This document shows positions 10,142-38,353 of a stretch of 64,000 nt of DNA, one piece after another. The position numbers and the translations under genes are program-made. Under the pieces are notes generated by a model that saw only the letters and a program-made list of their open reading frames with translations, searched no databases and was not told where the DNA came from. Source of the stretch: an uncultured Opitutales bacterium (lineage in GTDB: Bacteria; Verrucomicrobiota; Verrucomicrobiia; Opitutales; Intestinicryptomonadaceae); NCBI GenBank assembly GCA_900548275.1, contig URJY01000003.1, positions 30,167 to 94,166 of the forward strand, given 5' to 3'. Position 1 is the stretch's first letter, and the number at the start of each line of letters is the position of its first letter.

Positions 10142-10174
10142 TCCGATATACAAAGTTTGGGTATTGCTTTCGAA

Positions 10175-10203
10175 TCCCGTCTTTTCCGAAAGACGGGATT
10201 TGT
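10175..10203. terminator. Terminator-like hairpin (atcccgtcttt/aaagacgggat) at the end of the conserved core, immediately before the AT-rich region
   Basis: 11-bp perfect stem; T-run is short (ttt). Confidence 0.45.
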
Positions 10204-10576
10204 CGTATATGCGGACGGCTTTTAATGTCATTCGAAATAAATATAATTGATTTTTTTGCGGAGGATATATTAGACTTCCCCTTATGGACGGGTTCGTCGC
10301 TCATTTGAATGTTGAATCCTTCGTTTTTTTGCTACATTGGTTGTTTTGCCTGTCTGTTTGCATATTGTTTATCCGCCAAAAAATTTTTCGAAGTAGTTTC
10401 GTATTAATACGCTTCATTTCAATAAGATAGGCTACGTCTGCGCGTTTTGTTGTATGGATTGGTAATTTTGCATTATCCAATCTTGAGCCTTCTCAAAAAA
10501 ACGAACATTTAAAAGCTACTTTCGGGGCAACTTTTCGTCAACTATTTTTTCAATAGCAATCAACAAATAATAAATT

Positions 10577-11182
10577 ATGATATACGCATATATTAGAGTA
10601 AGTACCGACAAACAGTCGGTAGAAAATCAACGCTACGAAATAGAAACTTTTTGCCGCAAAAAGAATTTTGCCGTGGAACGTTGGATTGAGGAAACAATAA
10701 GCTCTCGGGTAAGCCTTCAAGAGCGAAAACTCGGCAAACTATTAAAACGGATAAAACGCGGCGACACGCTAATTGTGTCGGAATTATCGCGCTTGGGCAG
10801 AAGTTTAATGGAAATTATGGGGATTTTAAATACTCTAATGCGGCTGGAGGCAAAACTGATAACCGTAAAAGAGAACTACGAATTGGGCGACAATATAAAT
10901 TCAAAAGTGCTTGCATTCGCCTTCGGGCTTTCCGCCGAGGTGGAAAGGACGTTGATTTCGGCAAGAACGCGAGAAGCTCTCGCTCGGAAGAAAGCCGAAG
11001 GCATAAAATTAGGTCGCCCCAAGGGGAAAAACAACAATACGCTAAAACTGACACCCCAAAAAGAATATATCAACAAAATGCTGCGCGAAAATATGGCCGT
11101 TGGAGTAATCTCCAAGCGGCTGCAAGTTCACCGTTCAATGCTAACACGCTTTTTGAAGCGAAAAAGTATGAGATTCGATTGA
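10577..11182 (+). CDS. Serine recombinase (DNA invertase/resolvase, Hin/Gin/PinR-like)
   Basis: 201 aa; N-terminal YIRVSTDKQ catalytic-serine motif, resolvase core, C-terminal HTH. Confidence 0.85.
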   Translation: MIYAYIRVSTDKQSVENQRYEIETFCRKKNFAVERWIEETISSRVSLQERKLGKLLKRIKRGDTLIVSELSRLGRSLMEIMGILNTLMRLEAKLITVKENYELGDNINSKVLAFAFGLSAEVERTLISARTREALARKKAEGIKLGRPKGKNNNTLKLTPQKEYINKMLRENMAVGVISKRLQVHRSMLTRFLKRKSMRFD

Positions 11183-11258
11183 AAAACAAACGACGCTGCA
11201 TTTGGCTCTTCTATGTGGAGTTGTGAAGGGTTGCAACTTATTGAATATGCAGCTGTTC

Positions 11259-11466
11259 GAATGGTGGGAGTTTAGCGAATTGGCTTTTCTTCGGCTTCGC
11301 CTCGAAAAGCCTGTTCTGACTCCCACAAAAAAACTTCCAAGCCATCGACTTGGAAGTTTTTCAAATGGTGGGAGTTTAGCGAATTGGCTTTTCTTTCGCT
11401 TCGCTCGAAAAGCCTGTTCTGACTCCCACAAAAAAACTTCCAAGCCAAAGACTTGGAAGTTTTTTC
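11259..11466 (-). repeat. Two tandem 105-nt units (U1 11259..11362, U2 11363..11466), each a terminator hairpin plus a minihelix ending in ACTCCCACCA, a mimic of the tRNA-Val 3' end
   Basis: Units about 95% identical to each other and to 39936..40040. Read on the minus strand each unit is AAAAACTTCCAAG-loop-CTTGGAAGTTTTTTT followed by GTGGGAGT...ACTCCCACCA. Confidence 0.7.
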
Positions 11467-11469
11467 AAA

Positions 11470-11519
11470 TGGTGGGAGTAGCAGAACTCGAATCTGCGAC
11501 CCCTTGCGTGTCATACAAG
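11470..11519 (-). repeat. Partial duplicate of the tRNA-Val 3' half (anticodon stem to CCA); att-type direct repeat marking the distal island junction
   Basis: 49/50 identical to 40044..40093 (single mismatch at 11515); same orientation as the intact tRNA. Confidence 0.8.
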
Positions 11520-11667
11520 AAATGCTTGCTAATATCCAATAAGTTATGAAATCGTTGTGCCGCTTGGTTGCAATTTGACACTTTCTTGACTCGCCGAAAT
11601 CTGCAATTATTGGATCGTAAATCTTGGCTGTTTGTAATGTTGAACATCTAACGAAATCATTTGATTC

Positions 11668-12609
11668 CTACCGCAATTTGCCGATTCTTTCGCGTATCAA
11701 AGTGCAAAAACCGTCTTGTTGTTCGGTTGCCAAAAAGCTCGTGGTTATGAAATCGCAAAGTTTAGATTCTGCTTTAATCATTCGTGCGAATAGGTTGTCT
11801 ATTGCCGAGTCCGTCAACCCGAATGTTCTGAACGCCTTGACAAAATCTACTTTCGTATATTGGTATGTCCCGCCCTTGCCGTTGAGTGTTAGTGCCAATT
11901 CCTCTGCATTGTTCGGCAATGCAAGCTTTACATTTAGCATATCGTAGGCGGGCGAAAGTCTCCATTTGCCGTCGCTTTTTATGAGCGAAAAGTTTTTCAA
12001 GTGCATGTCGGAATTGCCTATTATCCACGAAAATAAAACTTGTTCGGCGAGATTCGAGAGGTCGAACCCGACGTTGTCGGAATATTCGCGGATTGTTTTT
12101 GCAATGCGTTCGTAGGACGACTTGTATTTGTCTTCGCTCAGCCGCAAAGTAAGCTGCGCCATGTCCTCCATAGGGAATTTTTCGCCGTTCGCGCCGCGGT
12201 CGATTCGCTTTGTTATATAGCAAAGCCCGCCGTCGGCAAAGCGCATCAGCGAGTGCGGCACCGTTGCAAGCCCCGCGATTTCCGCCAAGTGCATGCTCAA
12301 ATCTTCGTTTTCGGGAAGATTGCAAAAGCGCGCCGCCTGCGGCTTCAAAATGTAGTTGCCGAATACGCCGACAATCGTGAGTTTCGGGTTGGCGCGAACG
12401 GCTTTGTCGAGATACATAGAAAGCTTCGGCTGAACTCCCGCGATTGTCGTTTGCGAGCGCACAACCTGTTTTGCAAGCTCTTTCAAGTCTGCCTGCGAGT
12501 AGGGTAGTTGCGGGACAACCGATGTGCCGAAAAATTTTTTGGTGCAGACTGCGTGAAAGTCTACCTCGCCGTCTTTGAGAGGCTTGTAGCAATACAAACA
12601 TCTTTTCAT
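11668..12609 (-). CDS. hipT: HipT kinase toxin (HipA C-terminal kinase domain) of a tripartite HipBST system
   Basis: 313 aa. HipA_C-like with catalytic-loop DMHLKNFSL. Lacks the HipA N-terminal domain, which is encoded separately upstream. Start overlaps the hipS stop (ATGA). Confidence 0.8.
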   Translation of the reverse strand: MKRCLYCYKPLKDGEVDFHAVCTKKFFGTSVVPQLPYSQADLKELAKQVVRSQTTIAGVQPKLSMYLDKAVRANPKLTIVGVFGNYILKPQAARFCNLPENEDLSMHLAEIAGLATVPHSLMRFADGGLCYITKRIDRGANGEKFPMEDMAQLTLRLSEDKYKSSYERIAKTIREYSDNVGFDLSNLAEQVLFSWIIGNSDMHLKNFSLIKSDGKWRLSPAYDMLNVKLALPNNAEELALTLNGKGGTYQYTKVDFVKAFRTFGLTDSAIDNLFARMIKAESKLCDFITTSFLATEQQDGFCTLIRERIGKLR

Positions 12610-12932
12610 TTACCGTCCTCCTCCCCGATGATGCTCACCGCTCCGATGCAGTCTTTGCAACAGGCGAGCAATAACCCCATTCTGTCGCGCGGGTCGAGCT
12701 TCCAAGTTTGCGTGGCAAAATCGAGCAGCCAACCTTCGGGAATAAGCCCGTCGAAAAACGAAAAAAACGTTCTTTGTACATACGGTTCGGGGCGGAGCGG
12801 CAATGTGAGACTGACAGGCTCAGCGGTGTCGGCGCGGAGGTATGTTTCGTCGTAAGCGAACTCGTAGCCCGATTCCGTTTCGCGCAACGTTCCCGCGAAG
12901 GCGTCTTTGAAGAAAACTTTTGCGCTTCTCAT
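12606..12932 (-). CDS. hipS: HipS, HipA N-terminal-domain-like protein
   Basis: 108 aa; resembles the HipA N-terminal (Couple_hipA) domain. Overlapping starts and stops link it to hipB and hipT. Confidence 0.7.
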   Translation of the reverse strand: MRSAKVFFKDAFAGTLRETESGYEFAYDETYLRADTAEPVSLTLPLRPEPYVQRTFFSFFDGLIPEGWLLDFATQTWKLDPRDRMGLLLACCKDCIGAVSIIGEEDGK

Positions 12933-13144
12933 TGCCTATCCTCCTTATCAAGCGGAACGGGCGCAAGCTTCGCGCCGAACATAAACAAAACCTGATTGAC
13001 CATTTTTATCCGAAGGTCTTGCTTGCCCTGTTCAATGTCGCGAATGAAATGAATGCCCACGCCGCTTTTGTCGGCAAGAGACTGTTGGGTCATCTTCAAT
13101 TCTTTGCGCCGCGCTTTTACAAAATCTTTTAGTTGTTCGCTCAT
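12929..13144 (-). CDS. hipB: HipB-like XRE-family HTH antitoxin/regulator
   Basis: Start taken at MSEQLKDF (13144). TQQSLADKSGV is an XRE HTH. The upstream 12 codons of the tracked ORF are AT-rich and promoter-like (ttgtataaaatg). Confidence 0.7.
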   Translation of the reverse strand: MSEQLKDFVKARRKELKMTQQSLADKSGVGIHFIRDIEQGKQDLRIKMVNQVLFMFGAKLAPVPLDKEDRQ

Positions 13145-13258
13145 TTTATACAATAATCGTATATATTTTGCGAAAATCAAGAATAATATACAGATAATGT
13201 ATAAATTTGCCCCGCCAGCTTCCTGTTATACGAAATATGTATAATGTGCGTCTCGCAA

Positions 13259-14215
13259 TTACCTCAAATAATACCCGCCAGTCTTGGGTGCACCGCGGAA
13301 TTCGACTTGGTCAGCAAGCTTTTTCAAGTCGCGGGCAAGAGTCCGCTTGGGGATTGAAAGCGCGGCGGAAAGCTCGCCGGCATTGCAACCCTCGTGCGTT
13401 TTTATGTAGCCGAACACTTCATTTACTCTGCCACTTACACTGCCATTTGCTCTGCCAATCGGTTCACCTTGGTGGATTTTCAGCGCATTGAGCAATTCTC
13501 CGAGCATAAAATCAATAAACGCGCCGGAATCGTTGTTTGCCGTGCTCGCGTTGATGGCTTCGTAGTATTTCAGCTGGTTGTCGTGAACGAGCGTTTCGAC
13601 GGGCAGATATTGAAATACGGGATTGAGTTTCGACAAAATCAGCGATTGCCACAAGCGACCCATTCTGCCGTTTCCGTCGGCGAACGGGTGAATAAATTCA
13701 AACTCGTAGTGGAAGACGCAACTGCGAATCAACAGGTGGTCGTCGGCGTTTTTGAGCCAGTCGAAGAGGTTTGCCATCAGCTCGGGTACACGTTCGAATG
13801 GTGGCGCAATGTGAACCGCGCGGTTTTCGTCAAAAACGCCGACTCCGCTTCTCCGAAATTGTCCCGCAGTTTCGACGAGTGCCGACATCATCTGCGCGTG
13901 TGCCCTCAAAAGGTCTTCGAGCGAAAACGGGTTGAACGAGGCAAAATTGTCGTATACTGCAATCGCGTTTTTCACCTCTTGAAGTTCGCGAATCGGCGCG
14001 ACTACATTTTTGCCGTTTAAAATATCACCAACCTGCGTTTCCGAAAGGGTATTGCCCTCAATCGCGAGCGACGAATAAATGGTCTTGATTTTGTTTGCCC
14101 GCCTAAGCTTCAACGCATCGCGTTCAAAGCGAATGGCAAACCGTTCGACAAGCGCGGAAATTTCCGCAATCATCGAAATCGCCTTGCTCGAAACTATAAA
14201 CGGGGGTTTTGTCAT
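13259..14215 (-). CDS. Fic-family protein (AMPylator-type) with C-terminal wHTH
   Basis: 318 aa; canonical Fic motif HPFADGNGRMGR. Confidence 0.85.
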   Translation of the reverse strand: MTKPPFIVSSKAISMIAEISALVERFAIRFERDALKLRRANKIKTIYSSLAIEGNTLSETQVGDILNGKNVVAPIRELQEVKNAIAVYDNFASFNPFSLEDLLRAHAQMMSALVETAGQFRRSGVGVFDENRAVHIAPPFERVPELMANLFDWLKNADDHLLIRSCVFHYEFEFIHPFADGNGRMGRLWQSLILSKLNPVFQYLPVETLVHDNQLKYYEAINASTANNDSGAFIDFMLGELLNALKIHQGEPIGRANGSVSGRVNEVFGYIKTHEGCNAGELSAALSIPKRTLARDLKKLADQVEFRGAPKTGGYYLR

Positions 14216-14256
14216 TTAAGGAAGCTTACTTTGTCGTCAAAATTAGTCAATAGTCC

Positions 14257-17001
14257 TTATTTCGCGAATTTGGCAACCAATCCTTCGAGAGTTGCGTTGG
14301 AGAGAACCGCGGTATCGGGAATCAGCAGGTATTTCCACGGAACTCCGCCATTTTTTAAGGCGTGTTCGCTTGCATATTCGCACCAACGTATTGCTGCCTG
14401 CGCTTTTGCCTGAACCTGTGTGGAATCGACGTCTTTCCCCGCTTTTGTCTCCACTAGCAATTTGCATGTAGGCGTTTCCACAATGAAGTCGGGTTCATAC
14501 TCCCTGCCGTCGGAATAGTAGATGGAAATATCTTTTGTAGTCGGCTTGAACCAGCGCGAAACTTCGGGCGAATCCTCCAAAATTACGGCAAATCTGCGTT
14601 CCGTGTCGGAGTCGAATTTCATTTGCGGGAACAGGCACTTTTTGAAACCGTCAAAAATGATGTCGCCGATATCGCGTTTTGTGAAGACTGGGTTTCTGAA
14701 ATTTTGCCTATTGTCTCCTTTTGTGAGCGTATAGCTGTTTGAGGATACAATGTTGAACCCTCTAAAAACGTCCGCCTTATATTCAACCGCCGCCGTTTTG
14801 ACGTGCTTGAACAATTCGTCGTGAAGCGTGTTTGCAATCTCCGTGCGGTTGAAAAGAACAATCTTGCGAACTTCGTTTTCGTCCGATTCATACGAGCGCA
14901 GGAAGTCGGCATACTGTTTTGCGATTGCATTTATAACTGCATTGTTGTCGTCGTATGGTATGTCGTTTAAATCCATCAACGCACTTACGATTATCTGTTC
15001 GGGCGATTCTTCGCCATCCATTTCCTCCGCGGAAACAACAAAGCCGATATTTGTTTGGAGCTGACGCACGGTGATGTCGCGGCTTACCCGTTGGAATTTA
15101 CGCAGCCCTTCACATTCGAGATTGAACATTTCGAATGTGCGGCGGCTTTCGCCTTTTGGGGTAATGATTACGCGCGGAATGTCGATTGTCATTTCCTGTG
15201 TCATTCCGATTGCCTTACCGACATTCTCTTCGATGTGTAGTTGCCCGTTTTGTCCGCCAAAATCGAGTTCAGTCTGCGGTACTTCTCTCGAAATTTTCTC
15301 CTTAACTTTTTCGACAATCAACGCCTTTACTTCGGGCGTAGAGAGGGCTTCGACAGTCGGCTGACTTTGGAAATCCTCGCTTATTACCTCTCTTGTGATT
15401 TTTGCGATTTTCTTTTCCTCTTCCGTGTTGAAAGTATATTTCTTTGCCGCGGATTTGATTATAGAATCTTGCGAATCGCCACGTGAAACCTCCGTGTCGT
15501 CGTCGGACGGTTCGTTTACATCGCCTTCGATTATCGCGTCTATCGCGTTTTTTACCGTTATCGAAACTTTGCCTTCGGGCGGAATGTCCCTGCCGATAAC
15601 AACCGTCTTTCTTATGAGCGAATCGGGACTGTTTGCATAGTCTACAATTTCCTGAAATTTGTCGTGCGAGACAATCGTGAGCGTATCCACTTCGGGCTCG
15701 CCAGTCCGCCTGCCGTAAGGCAAACGCAATCCGCGCCCGATGGACTGCTCGACAAGTGTTTTGGAGTTTGCCGCGCGCAGCGGAACAATCGTGTATAGGT
15801 TGGTAACGTCCCAACCCTCTTTTAGCATGTTGACGTGGATTACAATTTCAATCGGATTGTTCGGATCTTCCACAGTCAGAAGTTTTGCGATGTTTTCGTC
15901 CTTTTCTTCGCCAGAAGTCGCCGAATTTATCTCGAGAATTTTCCCCGCATAGCGGCCGTCGAAAAAGTCCGAACTTTCCATATACGCGCGCAGCTGAGCC
16001 GAATGCGTGGTATCGGTTGCCACAACCAAAATGAAGGGCTTTACGCGTTTTACCCCCTTATTTTGCGCGTAGACGGTCAACGCCGCCGCAGTGGATTCGT
16101 GAATGCATACGGCATCGTGAAGCTTGATTTTTTCAAGCTCTTCGGACGAATACTGCTTCGGGTCGAAGTTTTCGCGCGTGGCGACCGCCGGTTCTTTCAC
16201 ATATCCGTCGCGGATGGCAAGTGCGAGCGGGTAATCATAAATAACATTTTTAAACGGGACTGATTTCCCCGCTTTTTCCACCTGCGGAGTTGCCGTAAGC
16301 TCCAAACCCAAGACGGGTTTCAAGTCGTTTAACGCCTCCCAGCCCGCGCTTGCCCGATAGCGGTGCGACTCGTCCATAATTACGACCAAGTCTTCCTTTT
16401 CGGCGAGATAGTTGAAATAACTGTCGCCGATTGCCTCGTTCAGGCGGCGGATGCGCGCAACCGAACGCTGCTCGTCGTCTTTTGCGAGCTTGCCGCCGTC
16501 GCGGGCGGTAATTTTTGCGATGTTGAAAATGTTTATTACGACATTCGAAATCATGTCGTCGCGCGCGCCGATTCCGCTTTCGTAGTTGTCGCCCGTTACG
16601 ATTATCGGGGGATTTCTCGCAAATTCGCCGATTCCCTTGAAGACATATTTCGGCGTGTTGGGCGTGAAGTCGGCTTGAAGCTTGTTGTAAATTGTAAGGT
16701 TGGGGGCTACCACAAAGAAATTGTTTACGCCGTGCGCCGTGTGCAAATACGCAATGAACGCTCCCATCAAACGCGTTTTGCCGACGCCCGTTGCAAGCGC
16801 AAAACAAAGCGACGGAAACTTGCGCTCGAAATCCGAAACCGTGGGGAACTCGCTTTTGATAACCTCCAACGCCTTGGCAATGTCGCAGTCTTTCGACAAA
16901 TCCGTAATCTCGCAAATTCGGTCTAGAATTGAGAGCGAAATCTTTTGCGGCTCGCGTAAGCTAAGCCTGTTCGAAATAGGATTTACATCGTATACGCTCA
17001 T
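14257..17001 (-). CDS. res: Type III restriction enzyme Res subunit
   Basis: 914 aa; ResIII helicase motifs (ATGVGKT Walker A, DESHR, LELTATP). C-terminal PD-(D/E)xK-like nuclease region EYEPDFIVETPTCKLLVETKAGKD. Confidence 0.85.
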   Translation of the reverse strand: MSVYDVNPISNRLSLREPQKISLSILDRICEITDLSKDCDIAKALEVIKSEFPTVSDFERKFPSLCFALATGVGKTRLMGAFIAYLHTAHGVNNFFVVAPNLTIYNKLQADFTPNTPKYVFKGIGEFARNPPIIVTGDNYESGIGARDDMISNVVINIFNIAKITARDGGKLAKDDEQRSVARIRRLNEAIGDSYFNYLAEKEDLVVIMDESHRYRASAGWEALNDLKPVLGLELTATPQVEKAGKSVPFKNVIYDYPLALAIRDGYVKEPAVATRENFDPKQYSSEELEKIKLHDAVCIHESTAAALTVYAQNKGVKRVKPFILVVATDTTHSAQLRAYMESSDFFDGRYAGKILEINSATSGEEKDENIAKLLTVEDPNNPIEIVIHVNMLKEGWDVTNLYTIVPLRAANSKTLVEQSIGRGLRLPYGRRTGEPEVDTLTIVSHDKFQEIVDYANSPDSLIRKTVVIGRDIPPEGKVSITVKNAIDAIIEGDVNEPSDDDTEVSRGDSQDSIIKSAAKKYTFNTEEEKKIAKITREVISEDFQSQPTVEALSTPEVKALIVEKVKEKISREVPQTELDFGGQNGQLHIEENVGKAIGMTQEMTIDIPRVIITPKGESRRTFEMFNLECEGLRKFQRVSRDITVRQLQTNIGFVVSAEEMDGEESPEQIIVSALMDLNDIPYDDNNAVINAIAKQYADFLRSYESDENEVRKIVLFNRTEIANTLHDELFKHVKTAAVEYKADVFRGFNIVSSNSYTLTKGDNRQNFRNPVFTKRDIGDIIFDGFKKCLFPQMKFDSDTERRFAVILEDSPEVSRWFKPTTKDISIYYSDGREYEPDFIVETPTCKLLVETKAGKDVDSTQVQAKAQAAIRWCEYASEHALKNGGVPWKYLLIPDTAVLSNATLEGLVAKFAK

Positions 17002-18020
17002 TGTCTTCTCTTCTTTTGGGCGATTTTCTTTTCTATGTCTTTCAGCTCTTTCATGTCCTCTTGGTCGGCGGCTAAAGCTTCCTGTGCACGTCTTTTTGCG
17101 TCAAATTCGTCGTATCTGCCGCCGACAATTTGTTCCATTTCTACACGGCTCACAGTTCCCGAACCGTTCAGTACAGGAAAATCATTCAACATTAAAAGCT
17201 TGTCAACTGCCCCCTTCCAAAAGTCCATTGTTATCGTTTGGAGCCTCTTTACGCGCAATTCCGCTGAATCCAAGAAGATTGAAACAAGGCGGTTAAGCGT
17301 GTCGATTTCGTCGGCTTTCAGGTAGTTTTTGGCTATGATGATGTCGCCTTTGCGGACAATAGAACCCTTCCACGAAGTGAGATTCATATTCGGCTTTGTC
17401 GGATCCGCCCTCGAGACTATTATTTCAGCCGCGGTCTGTTTTGTTACAGCGTAAAGCAACTTATTTTGAACTTCCGCAAAAAACATCTGCGTTGCCTTGT
17501 CTTGCGGATCATAACCATAGCTTAGAGCAAATAAGTCGCGAACCTTCTGATAAAAACGCTTTTCGGAAGCACGGATATCGCGGATTTTCTCAAGCAGTTC
17601 GTCGAAATAGTCGAACGCGCCAAACGCATTGGGATTTTTTAGCCGCTCTTCGTTGATAAGGAAGCCTTTTTCGAGATACGAAACCAAATTGCGGATAGCC
17701 CATTGTCTGAACTCGACTGCACGCGGACTCCTAACCCTAAATCCTATTGCCAAAATCATTTCGAGAGAGTAAATGGCAACGTTGTAATTCTTACCATCGG
17801 AGGCAGTTGTTAAGTAATCCTTAACAACTGAACTTTTACCCAACTCCTTGTCTTCCAGTATGTTTTTTATGTGTATGCTGATGTTGGCAACGGAGGTGCC
17901 AAAAAGTTTTGCAATGTCGGGTTGAGTAAGCCAAATCTTGTCACCAAGCTTGGTAAGCCCTATCTCCGTCTTGCCGTCTTTCGACTTGTAAATTATGATG
18001 TCGTTTTCAGCCATTGTCAA
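16998..18020 (-). CDS. RhuM-family (virulence RhuM) protein embedded in the R-M operon
   Basis: 340 aa; N-terminal KSKDGKTEIGLT...WLTQPDIAKLFG... pattern characteristic of RhuM-family proteins, which are frequently inserted in R-M loci. Confidence 0.7.
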   Translation of the reverse strand: MTMAENDIIIYKSKDGKTEIGLTKLGDKIWLTQPDIAKLFGTSVANISIHIKNILEDKELGKSSVVKDYLTTASDGKNYNVAIYSLEMILAIGFRVRSPRAVEFRQWAIRNLVSYLEKGFLINEERLKNPNAFGAFDYFDELLEKIRDIRASEKRFYQKVRDLFALSYGYDPQDKATQMFFAEVQNKLLYAVTKQTAAEIIVSRADPTKPNMNLTSWKGSIVRKGDIIIAKNYLKADEIDTLNRLVSIFLDSAELRVKRLQTITMDFWKGAVDKLLMLNDFPVLNGSGTVSRVEMEQIVGGRYDEFDAKRRAQEALAADQEDMKELKDIEKKIAQKKRRQ

Positions 18021-18566
18021 TCAGTCCTTTTGGTATCCTTCGTAATAGTATGATTGTTCTATGCCCTTGAAAATTATTTCCCTGTTGTCTACGTCGTCGG
18101 TTAGGGCGGACATAAGCAGCGTCCGTATTTCGAGGTCGTTTATAGGGCTGCGCTCCATTGCCTGTAAATATCGGTCTTTGTCAACCGTTTGCCAGTTCAC
18201 GACTTTCCCCAAACGCTTCTTCAAAATCATATCAAGCCAAATGCGCATACTTCTGCCGTTGCCCTCCATAAACGGATGCGCAACGTTCACCTCAACATAC
18301 TTGGCTATAATTTCCCCAAAGGAATTTTCGGGCATCTGCTCGATTTTCGCCAATGCTTCTTTCAGATACAAACTGTTTGCAAATCTGAATCCGCCTTTCG
18401 AAATGTTCTTTTCTCGAATCTGCCCCGCAAAGTCGTATAATCCGCCGAATAAATACTTGTGAATGTCGAGCAAGCCGCGCAACGTGCCTACTTCAACCGC
18501 GTCAATCGCGCCGCTTTCAAATAGCCTATACGCATTTTGCAAGCTCTGTTCGTCGATGCTTTTCAT
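18021..18566 (-). CDS. Small Fic/Doc-family protein
   Basis: 181 aa; Fic motif [12 protein letters not shown]. Confidence 0.8.
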
Positions 18567-20284
18567 TACTTATTCTCCCCGAATAAATCGAGTTGGTCTT
18601 TGTCGTTTTTTTGTTTCTTGAAGGATTTTTTTGCGGGCGCGGGTTGCGGCGGAGTCGGTTCCGCAAAGGGGAGGTTTTTTATCTCCAAGGAATAGTCGTC
18701 GTGGTTCCATTCGCACTTTTTGAGTATCGCCTTGGGGATCTTCTTGATTGTAAGATTTCCGTATCTTTCCGCATTGCCGTCGAACGAGCCGCAGCAAATT
18801 AAAAGCGAATTCTTTTGCCCGACGTCATCATTTAACTTTGTGAGCATTTGCGCCGTTAGATGCTGGGTTGTGATGTAAATAAAGTCGGTTTCGGTTGATT
18901 TACCCTGCTTCCAATACGTGTCGGGCGAGGGATTGAAATCAAAGCCCTCTATTTTGCACAACGCGCGCACAAGCATGTGTTCGTCGAATTGCTTGTTGAT
19001 TACGGGGTTCCCCCATTCGTCGAACTTGATAAGACTTGGTGCCAAATTGTAGTAGCGGAAGCCGCCGCCGCCCTGCCAGTTCGCCGATTTAGTGATGCCG
19101 CCTTGGTCTTCGCCGTCGATAACCTTTTTCAGACGCGGCGCACAATGAGTATCGCAGTGGTCGCCCAATTCAATACCAATCCACCGCCGCCCCATCTTGT
19201 GCGCAACCGCCGCCGTAGTCCCCGACCCCAAAAACGAATCAAGCACAAGATCTCCAGGAACAGTTACTGCCGACAATAAAGTATTAATAAGTTTTTCTGG
19301 TTTTGGATAATCAAAGGCTTTTTCTGTTCCGAATAAGTCTATAGTTTCTTTATTTGAATCCTCATATGTCGACATATTAAAATGTGCAACCGTAAGTAAA
19401 TTTTTTATTTTTTTTGATTCTCCTCCACTCTTTATATGGTTTGGTCGGAATGGTATTTTACTTATAATTAGAGGCTCTTTGGCGTCTATAATCTCATTTA
19501 GCTTTCGCTGAGAATATCTCCATTCCCCTTCAAGCCTAAAATCATTCTCGTTCTTTTTATTCTTTATTACTAATTTATCGAGAAGCTTTGTTTTTATATT
19601 TCCTTCCGACATATCCTGGGGAAGGATTATCCCATCTTCTATATTCGTAAAACTTACAGAACCTGCTGGAAATTTTAATATCTGCAAAGAATTTCCCGCA
19701 TTATTTAATGGGTATTTTTTATCTTCTGTCGTCATCCCTCCAATAAAAGGAGGCGATTTTTGCCTGATTGGAGAATATGAAAGAATATACTCTGTTATAA
19801 TACCCATATTCGCATTTAGAAACGATGGTTTTTTCTTTTTTTCCCAAACAAATTGACCGCAAAAATTTTGCCTCCCAAAAATCTCATCTAACAATACCTT
19901 TAAGTAAGCTTGTTCTGTGTCATCTATTTGAACAAATAATATTCCATCTTCAGATAATAATCTTCTCAATATTTCCAAACGTTCTCTCATTAATGAGAGC
20001 CAAATAGAGTGTTCTAATCCATCGTCGTAGTGTTCAAAAGCATTGCCAGTGTTGTAGGGAGGATCAATATAAATACACTTAACTTTGCCTGCATATTCCT
20101 GTTCGAGAGCTTTTAGTGCAAGAAGATTGTCGCCATGAATAAGCATGTTATCGAAAATATCGTCATTCGACACTCTTTTTGCGGCATGATAACTCTTTGC
20201 GGGATCCTCAATAAGAATCCGAGGCTCCAACCGCGCCCGCTTCTCCTTCCCCACCCAAACCAACTCTAACTTCTGCTTGTTCAT
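18566..20284 (-). CDS. mod: Type III R-M Mod subunit (N6-adenine DNA methyltransferase)
   Basis: 572 aa; DPPY motif ([10 protein letters not shown]); AdoMet-binding region near C-terminus ([12 protein letters not shown]). The 5' half of the gene is conspicuously AT-rich relative to the 3' half (see finding 'Island is compositionally mosaic'). Confidence 0.85.
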
Positions 20285-20308
20285 TTTTTATAACAATCAC
20301 TATTTTGT

Positions 20309-21157
20309 TTAAGATTTAGCAGTAGTCAAGCGTCTTAAATTCGAATAATAAAGTAAATTTGATTTTATGAATTTTCCCAACCCATCCAAATCTCCATATA
20401 TTGTTTTAAGATTAATATTCATTTTTCGCAACATGCAAAATATGTCTCTATATAATTTTGATGGAATTAATATTTTTGTTAAGTCGATATCTTCGTATTC
20501 TTTTTTTGCCAATGTTTCCTCAATATCCAAAAATCTATTCGAAATTAAGAATGTTCCATTTTGCCGATCTATACGTTTATTTGCATAAAGAGGCTCGTTT
20601 ATCATAAAATATGATACATTTGTGCAAGTTTGAGAAAAAATATAATCGCTTACCGTTTCTGCATTGATATACATTTGCTCTATGCTATAATTTTTAAATT
20701 GTTTATTGCTTATGAGCTTGCCTAATAAAATCTCATTAAGCCTTGTATAATTTAATGCGAATATAGAAAATTGATTTTCTTGATTCTCTATAAAGCACGG
20801 ATTGAGGTTTTCTATGATAAACCCGAGGGCAACAAAAGGGCTTGTTGTAAAATCAATTAATCGTGTTGGTGCTCCATAATGTTGCATTATGGATAACCAT
20901 CCTAAACGGGACTTTGGTTTATCTCTTAATTCTCCGTAGACATTGAATTTTGACTTGAAATCAGTTATGGCGGTATCTTCTAAGTCATAATATGTTCTGT
21001 CGTCTAAGTGAAATGTATTTCGAATCAAGGAAGACTCCATTCTCCATTTGGAAGAAAGATGGCCACGGAATACATATGAATTAGAAAAAGAATTTAAGGC
21101 CTCGAATAAATCACTAATCGTAGCGATAGTTATGGTCTTTAGCATCTTATTCTCCAT
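20309..21157 (-). CDS. FRG-domain protein
   Basis: 282 aa; N-terminal SNSYVFRGH matches the FRG-domain signature. Very AT-rich gene. Confidence 0.7.
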   Translation of the reverse strand: MENKMLKTITIATISDLFEALNSFSNSYVFRGHLSSKWRMESSLIRNTFHLDDRTYYDLEDTAITDFKSKFNVYGELRDKPKSRLGWLSIMQHYGAPTRLIDFTTSPFVALGFIIENLNPCFIENQENQFSIFALNYTRLNEILLGKLISNKQFKNYSIEQMYINAETVSDYIFSQTCTNVSYFMINEPLYANKRIDRQNGTFLISNRFLDIEETLAKKEYEDIDLTKILIPSKLYRDIFCMLRKMNINLKTIYGDLDGLGKFIKSNLLYYSNLRRLTTAKS

Positions 21158-22004
21158 TCCAAATTTCCTTGTATACGCGAATCATGTCTTTGTAAACCTT
21201 TGACGGCTTAACATCTTCTTTGTCATATGTCAAAGTATACGGGTCGCCTTCAGTTGATATTGTAGATAAGTGAGAATTTTGTTTTGTTAATATTCGCGCT
21301 CTGGCAATATTTCCCGTTGCCACAGTGCTTCTTGAAATCGCTTCGACTGCTTCCTGATCCAAATTTGCCCCCTTAAAAACAGTAGAACCTTCATTCCCGT
21401 TAACAGCTTGTAGCATTTCGGCTGATGGTTTTTGGAATTTTTCATCAGCATCAAATGGATTAGGGCGTGAAAAAGTTGCACGAAGCTGTTTAATAGCATA
21501 GGATTCGCGCAATTTTGAAATAAATTCCTTTGGATCGTTTATTTTAGAAATAGAAAGAGATAACCCATTTTGAACTATAACTTTTGACTTTCCTAAAATC
21601 GCCTGTAAGCGTTCTGCTGTTTTTTCAGTTTTCCCTAATTTATGGTTAACTTCTATCGCAAATAGTTCGTATTTTTTAGAATAAACGACGATTGAATGCA
21701 ATCCAATGTCATACTTTATCTTGTAAAAATCTTGTTTGGAATTGTCAAATAATTCTAGGTCAGCCAAAGATACTTTCCCAAATGCGAAATAGCCTCCATC
21801 ATCACTAAATTCATTTATACTGCCAGCTTTCCATATGATGCTTTCTCGGTATTTTATTGAAGTTTGTTCGCTTATACTTTGTGCAAATATAGCTTGCGGA
21901 GTTTCTTCTATTCCTCTATGAAGAGGAAGTTCGAGTTGGATCGGATGCGTAATTTTTGCCCTAAATAGGTTATATTTGTTTTTTGTTTTCATACAATTCT
22001 CCAT
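21147..22004 (-). CDS. Hypothetical protein (no recognisable motif), co-operonic with the SNF2 helicase and FRG genes
   Basis: 285-aa ORF. Overlaps both neighbours by a few codons, consistent with translational coupling. Confidence 0.5.
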   Translation of the reverse strand: MENCMKTKNKYNLFRAKITHPIQLELPLHRGIEETPQAIFAQSISEQTSIKYRESIIWKAGSINEFSDDGGYFAFGKVSLADLELFDNSKQDFYKIKYDIGLHSIVVYSKKYELFAIEVNHKLGKTEKTAERLQAILGKSKVIVQNGLSLSISKINDPKEFISKLRESYAIKQLRATFSRPNPFDADEKFQKPSAEMLQAVNGNEGSTVFKGANLDQEAVEAISRSTVATGNIARARILTKQNSHLSTISTEGDPYTLTYDKEDVKPSKVYKDMIRVYKEIWNGE

Positions 22005-24886
22005 TCTATTGCAAATATTATTTGCGATGTTATCTTATTAGTCAATGATTTTTCGGCGGCGGCGATTAGTTTGTCGCGTTCGTCGTCTATGGCGTCTTGG
22101 GCGGCGAAAAGTTTGCGCCGTAGGTTCATTCTTTCCGTTTCGGCGGCTCTCAAATTACGTTGGTTTGCTATCTTCTCGTCGAGCGTATGGAGGTTGCGAG
22201 TATTCTTCTTTAAGTCGCGAATTTGTTTGTCGATTTCCTTGATTTTCAAGTCGAGGGACGTTTTGCGGTCTTCGCTCCAACGCTCGAGTTTCTCGACTTC
22301 GGCATCGAACTGTTTAGCGGTTTTCTCGGTGTTGTCGGCGATAATTGCCGCTTTTTGGCTTTCAAAGAAAGGTTCAAGAGGTGTCGAATCAAACGCGTCG
22401 GGGAGATCGTATGTTCGGGCGTTGAGGTTGAAAAATCTGCGGGCGGTATCGGGATCTATTTGGTTGCCGAGGTCGTCAACACAGGTGAAGACAAGGTGTT
22501 CTTCGGGCTCGGTTGTGCCGATTGTGATTTTTGAGAGCATCAGTTTGCCCGACTTTTTCGGCAGCTGTTCGATAACCGAAATTTTACCGATTGTGTTTTC
22601 GTAATCGAAGAGAACGCCGCGGTATGGAAGATCGCGGTTGGCGGCGCGGGCGATGAGCTTTTGGGCTATCGGGTGCGTGATGCCGTAGGGCTGGCAATAT
22701 TCGCCGTTCCATTTTATGGCGTAGAGTTTTTTATCCACAAAGTCGGGCGCGGTCTCGTTAAGCATTTGGAACGTGAGATTTTCTTCGTCGAAAAACACGC
22801 CCTGACTTGAAAGCTCGTATTTTGTAAGCGCCCAAAGAATTGCCTGCAATTTGTCGATGGTTGCGTGCGAAGCCTCGTGGAAAACGTTGAGGCGTTCGGC
22901 AACTTCGGCGTCGAAATTTTCAAGCAGTTTGCGCCGCGCCTTGCGGATATTTTCGGCAATCTCCAAAGAAAAGCGCGTTTGAATGAAGTCGAACTCCATT
23001 TGGATCTGCGCGGACGTTCGGCATTTTTGATAGATTTCTGCAATTTTGCGCTCGAAGTCTAATCCGTTGCCGAGCGCGCCGAGAATTTCGTCGCTCGCGC
23101 CGAACACGCCCTCGAAGAGATGGAGCTTTTCGTTGAGAATCTCGTAGACGCGTTGGTCGGCTTCGTTATTGAGGTTGAGGAAATTCACGACAACGACATC
23201 GTATTTTTGTCCGTATCGATGGCAACGTCCGATTCTCTGTTCAATACGCTGCGGGTTCCAAGGAAGGTCGTAATTGACCACGAGCGAGCAAAATTGCAGG
23301 TTGATACCTTCTGCCGCGGCCTCCGTTGCAATCATAATCTGCGCGTTGTCGCGGAAGTGCTCGACAAGAGCCGTGCGCATGTCGGCGGATTTTGACGCGG
23401 TAATGCGGTTCTGATTTTTCGCTTTCCACTCGTTGTAAATACGTTTCGACGTTTCGTCGGAATTTGTGCCGTTAAAGAGCATCAATTTGCCGTCGTAGCC
23501 GTTTTCGGAAAGAATTTGCCAGATGTAGTCTTGCGTTCGGCGCGACTCCGTAAAGATTACCGCCTTGCGCGCCCCGCCGAGATTTTCCGCCATAGCAAAA
23601 CCACTTTTGAGCGCGGCAAGCAGAGCCTCGCCTTTCGCATTTTGACGGATACTTTGCGCGAGCGAAAGATAATTTTTAAGATCCGCAATTTCGCTCTTTA
23701 TCGCGTTGATTTCGAATTCCGACAACGGTTCGTCGGGTTGGTCGGGAGAGGGGAGATCTCCGTCGAAAGATTCGTCGTCTTCATCGTCGTCGAACTCGTC
23801 GGAGGCGGAGTATTCGTCCGCCGTTTCGAAATCCTGCGACACATCGAGTTTAGCCTGTTCGGTGCCGTCTTTGAGCATAAGTTCAAGGCGGGTAATAAGA
23901 GTTTCAAGTGTTCCCGCAATAGCAAAGGACGACGAGGCAAGCAGTTTGCGCAAAATCATTGTCATCAGTTTGCGTTGCCCGTTTGGCAGGGCTTTAAGGG
24001 CGTCGCGCCGCAAGTATTCGGAAATTTGTTCGTAGAGCTTTTCTTCGGCTTTTGTCGAATAAAACTCCTGTGTGAAAACGTGCCGCTTTGTGTATTTTAT
24101 ATACTTCAAAACCTGCTTGCGAAGAGTACGTTTACACAAGTGCGAAAGGCGTTCGCGGAGGTCGGCAAGTGTGGTGTCTGTCGGATTGTTTACAAAGAGT
24201 TCGCGAAAACTTTTCTCGTCGCCGAAAACGTGCGGATCGATAATTCCGACAAGCCCGTAAAGTTCCATCAGATTGTTTTGTAAAGGCGTTGCCGTAAGCA
24301 AAATTTTCGGCGCACTTTGAAGCGAATTTTTTATCGAAGTCCCCATTTTGTTTCCGCTTTTATAGACGTTGCGCAAGCGGTGGGCTTCGTCTATTACCGC
24401 TAAATCCCACGGTGTTTGTTTCAAGTAAGCCTCCTTGTTGCGGGCGAACGCGTAGGACGTGATTACGATTTCATCGCAATTGAAGGGGTTTAGTTTTCCG
24501 TTTTTTATCGCTTCGTTGAACGACTTGTTTTCGAGGATTTTTGCCGAAAGGGAGAATTTTTCTTCCAGTTCAATCTGCCATTGCTTGCGCAAATTTGCCG
24601 GAACGATAACCAGAATCCTCCGTTTTTTCTCTGCCCAACGCTGTGCGATTAAAATTCCGGCTTCGATGGTTTTACCAAGACCTACCTCGTCCGCAATAAG
24701 CGCACCGCGCGAGAGCGGCGAACTGAACGCAAAAACGGCGGCATCGACTTGATGCGGATTCAAGTCGACGCGTGTATTCATAAGCGCGGCGGCAAGGCGT
24801 TCGACCGTTCCTAGCGGGGCGCGAAGGGAAAGTTCATTTGCGAATAGTTGGGCGTGATAGTCTGTAATCATTTCAAAATCTGCCAA
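21989..24886 (-). CDS. SNF2/SWI2-family helicase with about 350-aa C-terminal extension
   Basis: 965 aa; DEVGLGKT (motif I), DEAHRLRN (motif II), LLTATPLQN (motif III), helicase-C region with QRIGRCHRYGQ (motif VI). Confidence 0.85.
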   Translation of the reverse strand: MADFEMITDYHAQLFANELSLRAPLGTVERLAAALMNTRVDLNPHQVDAAVFAFSSPLSRGALIADEVGLGKTIEAGILIAQRWAEKKRRILVIVPANLRKQWQIELEEKFSLSAKILENKSFNEAIKNGKLNPFNCDEIVITSYAFARNKEAYLKQTPWDLAVIDEAHRLRNVYKSGNKMGTSIKNSLQSAPKILLTATPLQNNLMELYGLVGIIDPHVFGDEKSFRELFVNNPTDTTLADLRERLSHLCKRTLRKQVLKYIKYTKRHVFTQEFYSTKAEEKLYEQISEYLRRDALKALPNGQRKLMTMILRKLLASSSFAIAGTLETLITRLELMLKDGTEQAKLDVSQDFETADEYSASDEFDDDEDDESFDGDLPSPDQPDEPLSEFEINAIKSEIADLKNYLSLAQSIRQNAKGEALLAALKSGFAMAENLGGARKAVIFTESRRTQDYIWQILSENGYDGKLMLFNGTNSDETSKRIYNEWKAKNQNRITASKSADMRTALVEHFRDNAQIMIATEAAAEGINLQFCSLVVNYDLPWNPQRIEQRIGRCHRYGQKYDVVVVNFLNLNNEADQRVYEILNEKLHLFEGVFGASDEILGALGNGLDFERKIAEIYQKCRTSAQIQMEFDFIQTRFSLEIAENIRKARRKLLENFDAEVAERLNVFHEASHATIDKLQAILWALTKYELSSQGVFFDEENLTFQMLNETAPDFVDKKLYAIKWNGEYCQPYGITHPIAQKLIARAANRDLPYRGVLFDYENTIGKISVIEQLPKKSGKLMLSKITIGTTEPEEHLVFTCVDDLGNQIDPDTARRFFNLNARTYDLPDAFDSTPLEPFFESQKAAIIADNTEKTAKQFDAEVEKLERWSEDRKTSLDLKIKEIDKQIRDLKKNTRNLHTLDEKIANQRNLRAAETERMNLRRKLFAAQDAIDDERDKLIAAAEKSLTNKITSQIIFAIEWRIV

Positions 24887-25086
24887 TCTACACTACTACA
24901 AAGACGGAAATGGGCAAGTTTTTGTTATTATCGTGTAAAAATTTACGCATATGCTGCTTTGCCCAGTTGAACTAAATGTAATCTCCACGCGCCTGATTTC
25001 TTAAATTACAAGTAAAATTCGCGCGAACCTTACCCTGTTTGGGTAAATTTTTACTCCATAAGACATAGCTTTGTAAGCTATTTTTT

Positions 25087-25617
25087 ATGAGTAAAGAATA
25101 TTACACATTAAGTGAACTAATCGACAATAACGGCGGGCTTTTGAATGACGAAAGTCTGCATTTTATAGCCAGGCACGGGTTGCTTTGCGAATTGCTACTT
25201 TGCAACAATCGGCTTGGGGAGGAGGCGTTCTTGGCGTTGCCTGCGATGGGATATGCGCCAAACAGCAACGAGCTTGCGTGTTATCTGTATATGCGCGACG
25301 ACCTTGATTGCAAGATGATGTCGGCACTCAACCTCTCCGATACGGTAATGTTGGAGTTGCTGTGTCTTGACCTATCGCTTTTGCCTGCGGTAAGGGCGAA
25401 GGGGCTATTTTGGCGTCTTGACGAAGGGCAATTTGCAAGAATTTTCATTAACGCGTATCTCGCACCTGAAAACACTGAACTTGTTACCGAACTACAAAAG
25501 CGCGGATGGGCTTTTATGGACGCCGTAATTTTGGACTGTCCAGAAATAATCCCGACTCTCGAACGAATGGGGGCAGATTTGGGGCAGTCGCGCTATGCCG
25601 CGTATCTTTCAAAGTAA
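25087..25617 (+). CDS. Hypothetical protein
   Basis: 176-aa ORF starting the plus-strand mobilization-side block; no motif recognised. Confidence 0.4.
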   Translation: MSKEYYTLSELIDNNGGLLNDESLHFIARHGLLCELLLCNNRLGEEAFLALPAMGYAPNSNELACYLYMRDDLDCKMMSALNLSDTVMLELLCLDLSLLPAVRAKGLFWRLDEGQFARIFINAYLAPENTELVTELQKRGWAFMDAVILDCPEIIPTLERMGADLGQSRYAAYLSK

Positions 25618-25645
25618 ATTTTGTGAGTAGGAAACATTTTACGTT

Positions 25646-27115
25646 ATGAAAAATAAGATAGTTTCTTCAATCAAAACGAGCGCGGGAGAGTTACAACTTT
25701 CCGAAGATACGCTCTGCAAGTACACGATATTTATAGGCAGCACGGGCAGCGGGAAAACAACTTCGCTAAACGTGCTTTTGCGCGATATCATCGGGTATAA
25801 TGCGGAAGACGAAACGCAGAAAGTCGGATTGCTCATCTTCGATTTAAAAGGCGACAACACGCTTTTCAAAATCCGAAAATGGGCGGAAGAATGTGGACGC
25901 GGGGAAGACGTAATAGATTATTGCGCCGACTCTAAGTTCTACTTCGACCCGCTCGGAGGCTTGGACAGCTTCCGCAAAATTCCTGAATACGTCGAACGAC
26001 TTTACAACATCTTTCCATTCCAGAGTAGCGAAGTTTATTGGGAACAGTCCCTAAGAAAGCGGTTCAAGACAGTGCTGACTTACTGCTTATTCCGACATGA
26101 AAAGACAAGGTTTAAACTCTTCTTGGAAGAACTGCGAGAGTTTACAACGGCGGATTCGTCAAACAGTAATTGGCGCGACGTGATGGACTCTGTTGAGATG
26201 GTTTTACGTGCACTTGAAAAGAAGTCGAAAGGCGCAGCAACCGAATCATATGAAATTTTGCGCGAACTTTTAGAGAACACGCGGGCGGGCGTTAACGAAT
26301 GGCAACGTCTCGACCCTCGAACCAAGAGCAATGAGTTAAGCACGATGTCGAACTTGATTTCATGTTTCGGTAACCCGATTACAAACGGGCATATTTTCGA
26401 GGGGAAGAGCAAGACGCGCTTGGACATCGGAGAACTTGTGTGTTCGGGAAAGATTGTCGTGGCTTCGTTCGACGGAATTGCAAACAGGCAGTCGGCGTCG
26501 GCAATTTGTAAACTTTTAAAGAGCGATGTCTACGGACACATTCAGGCGCGGCAAAATCCAAGCCGGCTTGTTGGTATTGTTATGGACGAATTTCCGCTTG
26601 TGGCAACCGACGGAGAAAACATCTCGGGCGACGGCTTCAATATGCAGACAATCCGTTCGAAACGCGGCTTTGTGATTGCCGCAACGCAGGGACTTGTCGG
26701 GCTTGATTTATCAATAGGCGAACAAGCTCGCCGCAGGCTTATGACGAATTTCAACAACGTTTTCGTCTTCAAAAGCAACGAACGCGAAGTGCTCGAATTG
26801 GTTGATGACTTGAACTTCTGTGAGCCGCCGCGGAGAAATATTGGGTTCGGGAACGATTCTCAATCTTGCGAAAAACGCGAGGCAATAACGCTTGCTAACG
26901 CTCCCGCGGGCTATGCCGCGATAAAGCTTGCCGACGGCTTTCAGTCGAACGGTCTTGTTGAAATCGAACGTCTCTTTGTTGATACGCCGCCGATATCCGC
27001 GAATAAGCTTGAATCGGAAATTGATAAATGCGCAAAAGTTCTCCGCACCTACTTAAAGACAATCGATTTTAACGCCTACCTTAACGGTAAATTTTTAGAC
27101 AAAGACACTTTATAA
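25646..27115 (+). CDS. P-loop ATPase of the FtsK/HerA/TraD-VirD4 superfamily (coupling-protein-like, no TM segments)
   Basis: 489 aa; Walker A IFIGSTGSGKTTS, Walker B IVMDEFPLV. Confidence 0.55.
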   Translation: MKNKIVSSIKTSAGELQLSEDTLCKYTIFIGSTGSGKTTSLNVLLRDIIGYNAEDETQKVGLLIFDLKGDNTLFKIRKWAEECGRGEDVIDYCADSKFYFDPLGGLDSFRKIPEYVERLYNIFPFQSSEVYWEQSLRKRFKTVLTYCLFRHEKTRFKLFLEELREFTTADSSNSNWRDVMDSVEMVLRALEKKSKGAATESYEILRELLENTRAGVNEWQRLDPRTKSNELSTMSNLISCFGNPITNGHIFEGKSKTRLDIGELVCSGKIVVASFDGIANRQSASAICKLLKSDVYGHIQARQNPSRLVGIVMDEFPLVATDGENISGDGFNMQTIRSKRGFVIAATQGLVGLDLSIGEQARRRLMTNFNNVFVFKSNEREVLELVDDLNFCEPPRRNIGFGNDSQSCEKREAITLANAPAGYAAIKLADGFQSNGLVEIERLFVDTPPISANKLESEIDKCAKVLRTYLKTIDFNAYLNGKFLDKDTL

Positions 27116-27293
27116 TCTATGAAATCTCATCATTCAAAATCATTTTCGCGATACCTGCGCGAAGTCAAAATCAGATACAAACGCGAGACGGCAAAGCGCA
27201 GTTTTGTTATAGCTTACGAACATTGCAACCTGCCGATTCTCCACACAGCAAGACTGCTCGCCAACAAACAACTCGCATACGAAAGGAATTAAT

Positions 27294-27725
27294 ATGGACG
27301 AAAAACTTTTTCACGCACACAAAGACACACACAACCCGAACAATCCGTATCCCGACTTTGTCCGCCAAGTGGCTAAACGTACAAAAGTACCGATTGAGCT
27401 TCTGACGCGCAAAAGATATTACGGGAAGTCCGCCAACGGCAAAGGCGACAACCACCATATCTTGGACAAATCGCTTTTCCCAAAGAAGGGCACGCCAACT
27501 ATCAGTGTCTCAAAAGAAAAACACTTCGAGCTTCAATGCCTACTCGCCCAAGCCACAACCCTACAAGGCTATATGGACTACGAACAAGCCGTGAAAACCG
27601 AGTGCCCCGAAATCCAAAACCCCATCGCCCAAATCTACTGGCAACGCATAGAATCCCTCCACACCCCGTGGCGGATTAGATTGACCTTATGGGTAAAAAA
27701 GGTTTTTGGAGATCGTATTCTGTAG
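27294..27725 (+). CDS. Hypothetical protein
   Basis: 143-aa ORF, no motif. Confidence 0.35.
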   Translation: MDEKLFHAHKDTHNPNNPYPDFVRQVAKRTKVPIELLTRKRYYGKSANGKGDNHHILDKSLFPKKGTPTISVSKEKHFELQCLLAQATTLQGYMDYEQAVKTECPEIQNPIAQIYWQRIESLHTPWRIRLTLWVKKVFGDRIL

Positions 27726-27812
27726 ACAGCCTGAAGTATCTCAACCGTTGGCAGAAATCTGCCCAACGGTTGCATGTATATAAGTAAACGTTTTGTTTTA
27801 TCTCGTGTTGCA

Positions 27813-31521: not shown

Positions 31522-31552
31522 ATTTTGACTGGCACTGACTAAGCTCATATTC

Positions 31553-32716: not shown

Positions 32717-32719
32717 GGA

Positions 32720-38348: not shown

Positions 38349-38353
38349 CTATT

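Follow-up and report, generated by a model that had tools for sequence, protein, structure and literature searches.

Escherichia coli's tyrT operon contains repeats of 178 bp, each of which carries the 3' end of tRNA-Tyr. CIMEs are cis-mobilisable remnants of integrative elements, flanked by att sites. The tyrT repeats encode the rtT/rttR RNA, according to Bosl and Kersten (1991) as cited in PMC3318445. Among the tRNA-targeting islands catalogued with Islander, the attP class centred on the anticodon is the commonest, and tandem islands are known (PMC4383910), as is a class with an asymmetric crossover at the tRNA 3' end (bioRxiv 10.1101/2020.11.02.365908).

The locus described here lies in a 64-kb stretch of DNA from an uncultured Opitutales bacterium (the window, meaning the whole stretch analysed), and it joins something known, an ordinary tRNA-targeting island, to something new, an unusual structured extension of the att repeat. 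Like Islander-type att repeats, it has an intact tDNA together with a displaced 3' piece that runs in the same direction and begins at the anticodon stem; the two also have in common a tyrosine integrase and the build-up of tandem or older elements at one tDNA. Unlike them, the repeat runs past the tRNA end through a 105-bp structured module, so that the att direct repeat (tRNA fragment plus unit) extends over ~158 bp instead of the ~53 bp of the tRNA part alone; the module, moreover, closes with the tRNA's last 10 nt once more, followed by TTT, and is present in tandem at the distal end. The tyrT/rtT arrangement is the nearest analogue, with tandem units located directly downstream of the tRNA gene in both cases, each repeating the tRNA 3' end including CCA. 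However, no sequence or Rfam relationship connects the two, the units described here belong with an integrative element, at whose two ends they are found, and one of their arms copies the tRNA end in inverted orientation. Co-transcription of the units with tRNA-Val is also unlikely, since each unit begins with a putative intrinsic terminator (T1) placed between the tRNA and the hairpin. The likeness to CIMEs consists in a short non-coding segment between direct repeats of the att-site end, in tandem beside a functional element; unlike CIMEs, the segment measures 92 nt, far below those described, it is conserved above the neighbouring island DNA, and the 13-nt repeat of the 3' end that flanks it does not match the anticodon-loop crossover proposed below.

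Three units of 104-105 nt were found in the window, at 11259..11362, 11363..11466 and 39936..40040, with a mean column identity of 96% in their alignment, in agreement with the original prediction of three units about 95% identical; unit-specific probes gave exactly three matches in the 64 kb, where shuffles gave an expectation of 0. On the minus strand, that of the tRNA, the order is tRNA-Val(GAC), TTT, unit C, an island of ~28.4 kb, a 50-nt tRNA 3' fragment with TTT, unit B and unit A. The sequence and the ARAGORN tRNA call therefore confirmed the junctions as first described, namely tRNA and unit at the proximal end, and partial tRNA, unit and unit at the distal end. The proximal unit C, defining the C-type (39936..40040, minus), comprises T1 (40004-40040), then a hairpin whose arms copy the tRNA end (39939-40003), and finally the trailer TTT (39936-38). 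The two units of the distal type, also on the minus strand, are unit B (11363..11466; T1 11430-11466, hairpin 11366-11429, TTT) and unit A (11259..11362; T1 11327-11362, hairpin 11262-11326, TTC), and TRF reported a tandem repeat at 11256-11479 with a period of 104 nt and 2.2 copies. The core ACTCCCACCATT(T/C) occurs five times in the window, against 0.07 expected from shuffles: once at each unit end, and once each where tRNA-Val(GAC) (40044-40120, minus) and the partial tRNA (11467-11519) end. The last 13 nt of each unit had been equated with the 3' acceptor strand and CCA of tRNA-Val; this is correct for 10 nt, the tRNA's last 10 (ACTCCCACCA), and incorrect for the final three, which are the trailer TTT (TTC in unit A).

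Each unit comprises the T1 hairpin and then a hairpin closed by 8 bp, folding at -44 to -50 kcal/mol (z = -6.4 to -8.5). T1 is laid out as A5-6 CTTCCAAG, a 7-nt loop and CTTGGAAG T7, with a stem of 8 bp (10 bp with two loop-closing pairs) that folds at -13 kcal/mol and is followed by U7 on the tRNA strand; on the opposite strand it folds at -9.5 kcal/mol and is followed by U5. Such a fold with U-tracts on both strands points to a bidirectional intrinsic terminator. The inner hairpin spans 64-65 nt, from GTGGGAGT to ACTCCCAC, encloses GGCTTTTC-(GGC GAA GCC)-GAAAAGCC, and on its own folds at -24 to -31 kcal/mol (z = -4.4 to -6.1). The first description of the unit, as a perfect terminator hairpin followed by a structured element, thus stands with regard to folding, which is strong for both parts, and to the U7 of T1, but the consensus terminator scanner made no call for T1 in any unit, whereas it did call T2, the second terminator of the locus. 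T1 escaped the scanner because its A-tract pairs with its T-tract.

Both arms of the inner hairpin reproduce the last ~18 nt of the tRNA, one in inverted and the other in direct orientation. Reverse-complemented and with two bases left out, the tRNA's final 18 nt (GTTCTGCTACTCCCAC) give the 5' arm, GTGGGAGT-CAGAAC, the significance of the inverted copy past its first 8 nt being modest (p about 0.04), and the 3' arm of the A/B units aligns to the tRNA over TTC-GCT--ACTCCCACCA, a homology of ~17 nt with indels. Within the 5' arm, GGGAGT is the exact complement of the tRNA 3' strand, whereas the tRNA 5' strand reads GGGGGT (G4.U69), and the arm continues as the complement of the 3' strand of the T-stem. 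The A in the position where the tRNA 5' strand has G suggests that the arm was copied from the tRNA 3' strand at the DNA level, and not from the tRNA 5' end. A pseudo-tRNA origin was rejected on the same complementarity of the 5' arm to the 3' strand and on the unit interior, which aligned to tRNA-Val no better than shuffles (877/2000 as good). Neither ARAGORN nor Rfam detected a cloverleaf in the units. In a cmscan search of 10500-12000 (E <= 10), no Rfam family reached its gathering score and rtT was not matched; the only matches with E < 0.01 were to plant-miRNA-precursor models, with 34-36 bits against gathering scores of 100-230, and were read as generic hairpin matches.

Variable columns were fewer among paired positions (5/72) than among unpaired ones (11/34; Fisher p = 0.0013). 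No compensatory substitution was found among the aligned unit variants, and 32 of the 36 pairs never vary, so the covariation test is uninformative; of the structural support anticipated in the original prediction, the strong fold was thus obtained and the covariation was not. The invariance of the stems would reflect constraint or recency, and is not to be taken as proof of structure. In a read-through transcript (window 39890-40120, minus), the T-stem and the acceptor 3' strand of the tRNA are predicted to pair with the inverted copy of the unit around T1. The minimum-energy prediction for this T1-centred alternative is -39.6 kcal/mol, against -26.7 for the cloverleaf, and read-through tRNA precursors are predicted to misfold.

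The intact tRNA-Val(GAC) gene (40044..40120, minus; called by ARAGORN) is identical in sequence in all five aligned contexts. Its displaced 3' fragment with TTT (11467..11519, minus) includes 50 nt (11470-11519) starting from the first base of the anticodon stem, and retains the whole anticodon stem-loop, with CTTGT as the 5' stem half in the window and CTTGC in L046 (loci from other genomes and metagenome contigs are given L numbers). An intact tDNA and a cognate 3' fragment in the same orientation bound the element, as is the rule by which an island is recognised. The starting point of the fragment points to a crossover in the anticodon loop. Such a crossover would make the DNA located 3' of that loop at the intact tRNA, namely unit C, T2 and the arm, a contribution of attP, and the 3' 50 nt of the intact tRNA-Val would likewise come from the island after integration. 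ACTCCCACCATTT is an improbable crossover core for this integrase, because the displaced fragment keeps the full anticodon stem-loop. T1 was also considered as a copy of the core site in the anticodon stem-loop and discarded, as the half-sites differ (CCAAG/CTTGG vs CTTGC/GCAAG). No further tRNA fragment was found to the left of unit A.

The mobilisable integrative island (~28.4 kb, 11520..39935) was characterised by Pfam scans and GC content, the latter being 33-52% in the island against 53-59% in the host flanks. Its genes include hipBA, two Fic genes, RhuM, a type III restriction-modification system, an SNF2 helicase, a TrwC relaxase (27813-30053), a coupling-protein-like ATPase and the integrase. 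A strong GC skew (+0.33) was observed at 28001-29000, within the relaxase gene. The tyrosine integrase (31553..32716, plus strand) is divergent: it has no Pfam match of its own and matches the NCBIfam models XerA/XerC/XerD weakly (E = 3e-9, far under the curated cut-offs), and its R..HxxR..Y region aligns with 27% identity to the Pfam-positive integrase of L014. T2, the second bidirectional intrinsic terminator (39895..39935, minus), was called by the scanner, folds at -14.4/-15.8 kcal/mol and has U-tracts on both strands. It is followed by the tRNA-side arm of the island, P' (39610..39894), with three GCAACCAAR motifs (39719-27, 39730-38 and 39863-71) and an identity to the window of 94% in L001 and 85% in L038. 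The distal arm, P (11520..11667), contains one GCAACCAAG motif at 11563-11571. Of the seven GCAACCAAR copies in the window, where 1.45 would be expected, four lie within the two arms, making these motifs candidate arm-type integrase sites.

A variable cargo slot extends between the integrase and the tRNA-proximal arm (33.1-39.6 kb) and is occupied in the window by defence cargo. The genes found there (33100-39600) encode a 337-aa protein, a 1316-aa T5orf172/MUG113-helicase-Eco57I-methylase fusion and a Schlafen/AlbA_2 protein. In L001 the slot (1479-9248) contains an RND efflux pump and an S8 peptidase, and in L038/L039 it is empty. On the other side of the array, between host queuosine-pathway genes and unit A, a low-GC segment (10142..11258; GC 35-43% vs 56% in the adjacent host gene) contains a lone gene for a 201-aa serine recombinase (10577-11182, plus strand), recognised by a Resolvase Pfam match. 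This segment is probably what is left of an older element located at the same tRNA.

The distribution of the unit was explored in one genome per species for 185,579 species and in 241 million metagenome contigs, by scans that required exact stems and that divergent relatives would escape. Within this scope the unit was located only directly 3' of tRNA-Val(GAC), in at least four host backgrounds, which answers in the affirmative the question of tRNA-Val specificity raised with the original prediction. The species-genome scan returned a single true unit, in L014 (labelled "uncultured Opitutales UMGS885"), the other matches being genuine Firmicutes tRNA-Val(UAC) genes with the same acceptor sequence or chance cyanobacterial matches. 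The metagenome scan added the units of L035, L037 and L038/L039, and pattern searches of viral, plasmid and phage collections detected none.

In the window, L001, L014/L035, L037 and L038/L039, the proximal unit is always single, is placed between tRNA-Val(GAC) and T2, and is 97-100% identical, while the flanks upstream of the tRNA are unalignable between these hosts. What follows T2 differs: in L038/L039 the arm and integrase are those of the window and cargo is absent, L001 comes from the host of the window and carries another cargo, L014 retains the first arm motif only and then a different integrase, and L037 departs from the island arm immediately past T2 and could be a host-native site. 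Between the window and L038, identity is 99.1% in the unit, 92.7% in T2, 85.3% in the arm and 93.4% in the integrase region; the divergence of the unit is hence 1%, compared with 7-15% in the flanking island DNA.

Eight distinct variants of the unit were collected. All the proximal ones are of the C-type (AGAAAAAC ... GCCACACTCCC), and the distal ones are of the A/B-type (... GCTAAACTCCC), which was never proximal among the variants collected. Within the same genome, distal units differ from unit C at 5-9 positions each, including 2-3 fixed type-specific differences. The distal array also varies between near-identical strains, being B+A in the window, B'+B''' in L026/L033 and B'+B''... in L048. 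Twelve contig look-ups yielded no island-free tRNA-Val site, excised circle or distal end of a second island, many contigs being broken inside units; look-ups through ThiS, GH92, resolvase, HipA and integrase homologues, directed at an empty site or a second distal junction, returned the same strain-level arrangement, contigs broken at units, or backbone only.

Many metagenome contigs (L003-L010, L027, L032, L045-L047) have an end within one of unit C, unit B and the tRNA fragment; that of L045, 28.6 kb long, stops inside unit B, at the distal junction of the island. Assemblies are thus interrupted systematically by the repeats where the island meets its flanks. At positions 1-31 of L010, a public metagenome contig, an untrimmed Nextera adapter (CTGTCTCTTATACACATCT...) is joined to the T1 loop. 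A second, unrelated family of intergenic repeats with GGCGCGACTATAGTCGCGCC hairpins was also observed in the window, at 43472-44058, downstream of tRNA-Leu(TAG) (44074-44157), and at 1443-1669, its copy number and arrangement varying among near-identical strains (L001, L003 and L004 vs the window).

Related islands are located at other tRNA genes. Integrases 37-46% identical to that of the window adjoin tRNA-Asp(GTC) in L041 and L042, and a second integrase family, of the L014 type, is found at tRNA-Asp and tRNA-Arg (L051-L053). In these relatives a terminator lies directly 3' of the tRNA end with no unit between them, after CTTT in the three tRNA-Asp loci, and clear T2 homologues are present in L042 (90% over 40 nt) and L052. 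Relatives that carry the terminator without the unit suggest that a tRNA end, a terminator and arm sites are the rule of the family, to which the tRNA-Val lineage alone adds the 105-nt unit. The L014-integrase relatives (L049-L056) are very abundant and strongly conserved, with 975 matches at E <= 1e-10, many of them 85-98% identical; DUF6431 and an ISL3 transposase fragment come after their integrases, which adjoin a giant autotransporter gene and are located at tRNA-Arg(CCG) or tRNA-Asp(GTC).

The explanation we favour, with a probability of roughly 0.55, is that the units are the post-tRNA module of the extended att repeat, one copy being borne by the island in its attP and the distal copies being earlier followers of the tRNA, amplified locally. 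The attP of such a tRNA-Val(GAC)-specific island would comprise the 3' 50 nt of the tRNA, one 105-bp module (T1 and hairpin), T2 and the arm-type sites, the 50 nt being needed to restore the gene once crossover has taken place in the anticodon loop. Integration would then leave tRNA, island module and island proximally, and the displaced fragment with one or more pre-existing modules distally; these distal copies, either host-native or left by an older island, would subsequently have been amplified in place. The attribution of the proximal unit to the island, on the attP side, is suggested by its 97-100% identity across hosts, by its single copy and by T2 always standing next to it. Of the origins put forward in the original prediction, a tRNA-end-mimicking hairpin that travels with the element provides the best fit in this respect, the near-identical proximal unit recurring in at least four hosts and always leading from the tRNA to T2 and the arm, but no evidence emerged for its action as a decoy or a secondary att site.

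The same arrangement would give the terminators a function. T1 would end the rebuilt tRNA transcript, T1 and T2 together would shield the convergent island genes from the strong tRNA promoter, and the distal T1, whose copies are the first terminators past hipBA and past the resolvase gene, would close the hipBA and resolvase transcripts; termination and insulation are the roles that we infer for T1 and T2 from sequence and position. The tRNA-end arms would have arisen by inverted and direct duplication of DNA around two palindromes, in an event of the template-switch type. The resulting 8-13-nt repeats in alternating orientation would make the array prone to slippage, which would explain the tandem pair and its variation among strains. 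The 1% divergence of the unit against 7-15% around it would require selection or recent replacement. There is a slim chance that the hairpin itself is a selected, island-borne element and no by-product: folded as DNA or RNA, it might imitate the tRNA end in a way that the island needs in order to integrate, excise or transfer, or it might misfold read-through tRNA transcripts and so neutralise them; room for this is left by the near-invariance of the hairpin across hosts, while the flanking island DNA diverges.

Among the alternatives, serial att-site scars are unlikely as a full account, and bear mainly on the origin of the unit. Here the unit would be the collapsed, CIME-like remnant of an earlier element that used the tRNA 3' end and left 13-bp direct repeats, T1 would be the post-tRNA terminator of that element, and the arrays would have grown by accretion and deletion. 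The 92-nt insert between 13-nt direct repeats of the tRNA end and trailer has this appearance, the homology of the A/B units to the tRNA extends over ~17 nt with indels, and a tRNA end followed by a terminator is the standard left end of these islands; the low-GC resolvase remnant distal to the array and the existence of tandem islands elsewhere (PMC4383910) are also consistent with it. Independent remnants, however, would not be 95% identical over their full length, so that the tandem pair needs a local duplication anyway. Moreover, genome, metagenome, viral, plasmid and phage collections yielded no full-length element with these ends, and a unit whose stems are invariant and whose conservation exceeds that of functional island DNA does not resemble a scar in decay. 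What survives of the scars proposed in the original prediction is therefore a possible evolutionary origin for the unit and for the distal tandem pair, and what does not is ACTCCCACCATTT as their probable crossover core, given the complete anticodon stem-loop of the fragment.

A host-native array, made up of tRNA-Val and three units in the manner of the repeats found past tyrT in E. coli, into which the island inserted at the 13-nt core ACTCCCACCATTT ending the first unit, would turn the mimic into a secondary attB and appears doubtful. The attP would then be the tRNA fragment and T2, as in the tRNA-Asp islands, and this is indeed the simplest attP of the family, since the tRNA-Asp relatives consist of tRNA end, (C)TTT and T2 with no unit. 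Sequences swap partners exactly after CCATTT at every junction, and a class of asymmetric 3'-end crossovers has been described (bioRxiv 10.1101/2020.11.02.365908). Such an array nevertheless demands that a non-coding unit remain 99-100% identical across species whose intergenic DNA is unalignable, yet differ at 5-9 positions between tandem neighbours; it further demands that every island landed after exactly one unit, in five contexts, and it leaves the complete anticodon stem-loop of the fragment without explanation.

That the hairpin functions by imitating the tRNA end is very unlikely, whether as a small CCA-ending RNA produced by read-through of T1 and acting as decoy or substrate for tRNA-directed enzymes, or as a folded single-stranded DNA site during transfer. 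Its strong fold (z = -4.4 to -6.1), its invariant stems with variable loops, its conservation above that of the flanking island DNA, and the presence in the island of a relaxase and of the tRNA-related toxins HipA and Fic would suit such a function. Against it, the hairpin lies between two strong terminators with no promoter-like site, has no match to Rfam or tRNA models and no covariation, and its 8-bp stem, unlike the acceptor end of a tRNA, takes up both C74 and the discriminator base; nothing equivalent is present in the related islands at tRNA-Asp and tRNA-Arg.

A generic REP/BIME-like host repeat, the last of the origins originally proposed, has next to no chance of being correct: the units do share with BIME/REP arrays alternating palindromes with spacers in inverted orientation, an intergenic location at gene 3' ends and a variable copy number, but they are locus-specific and not dispersed, their arms copy the tRNA end, there are only three copies in 64 kb, all at tRNA-Val junctions, and searches of the window and of genome, metagenome, viral, plasmid and phage sequences found no copy away from tRNA-Val(GAC).

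Three further roles were considered and set aside. The units are not sites for the adjacent resolvase, as the proximal copies of other hosts have no resolvase nearby; a role as oriT is unlikely at a distance of 10-18 kb from the relaxase gene; and an integron attC-like site was rejected, the sequence having no GTTRRRY/RYYYAAC boxes and the matches to integron-integrase models being weak and generic.

If the units are indeed the module of an extended att repeat, island mappers that rely on the tRNA fragment alone would misplace the ends by 100-200 bp, and the repeats would break metagenome assemblies exactly at the island junctions. The strong and unexplained conservation of the hairpin represents a small, testable puzzle. 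The long homologous repeats and the slippage-prone arrays may affect the stability of the island. Above all, the integrative element would carry a complete structured post-tRNA module, composed of a terminator and a palindromic spacer, beyond the 3' part of its target tRNA, and would thereby replace the 3' flank of the host tRNA at each integration.
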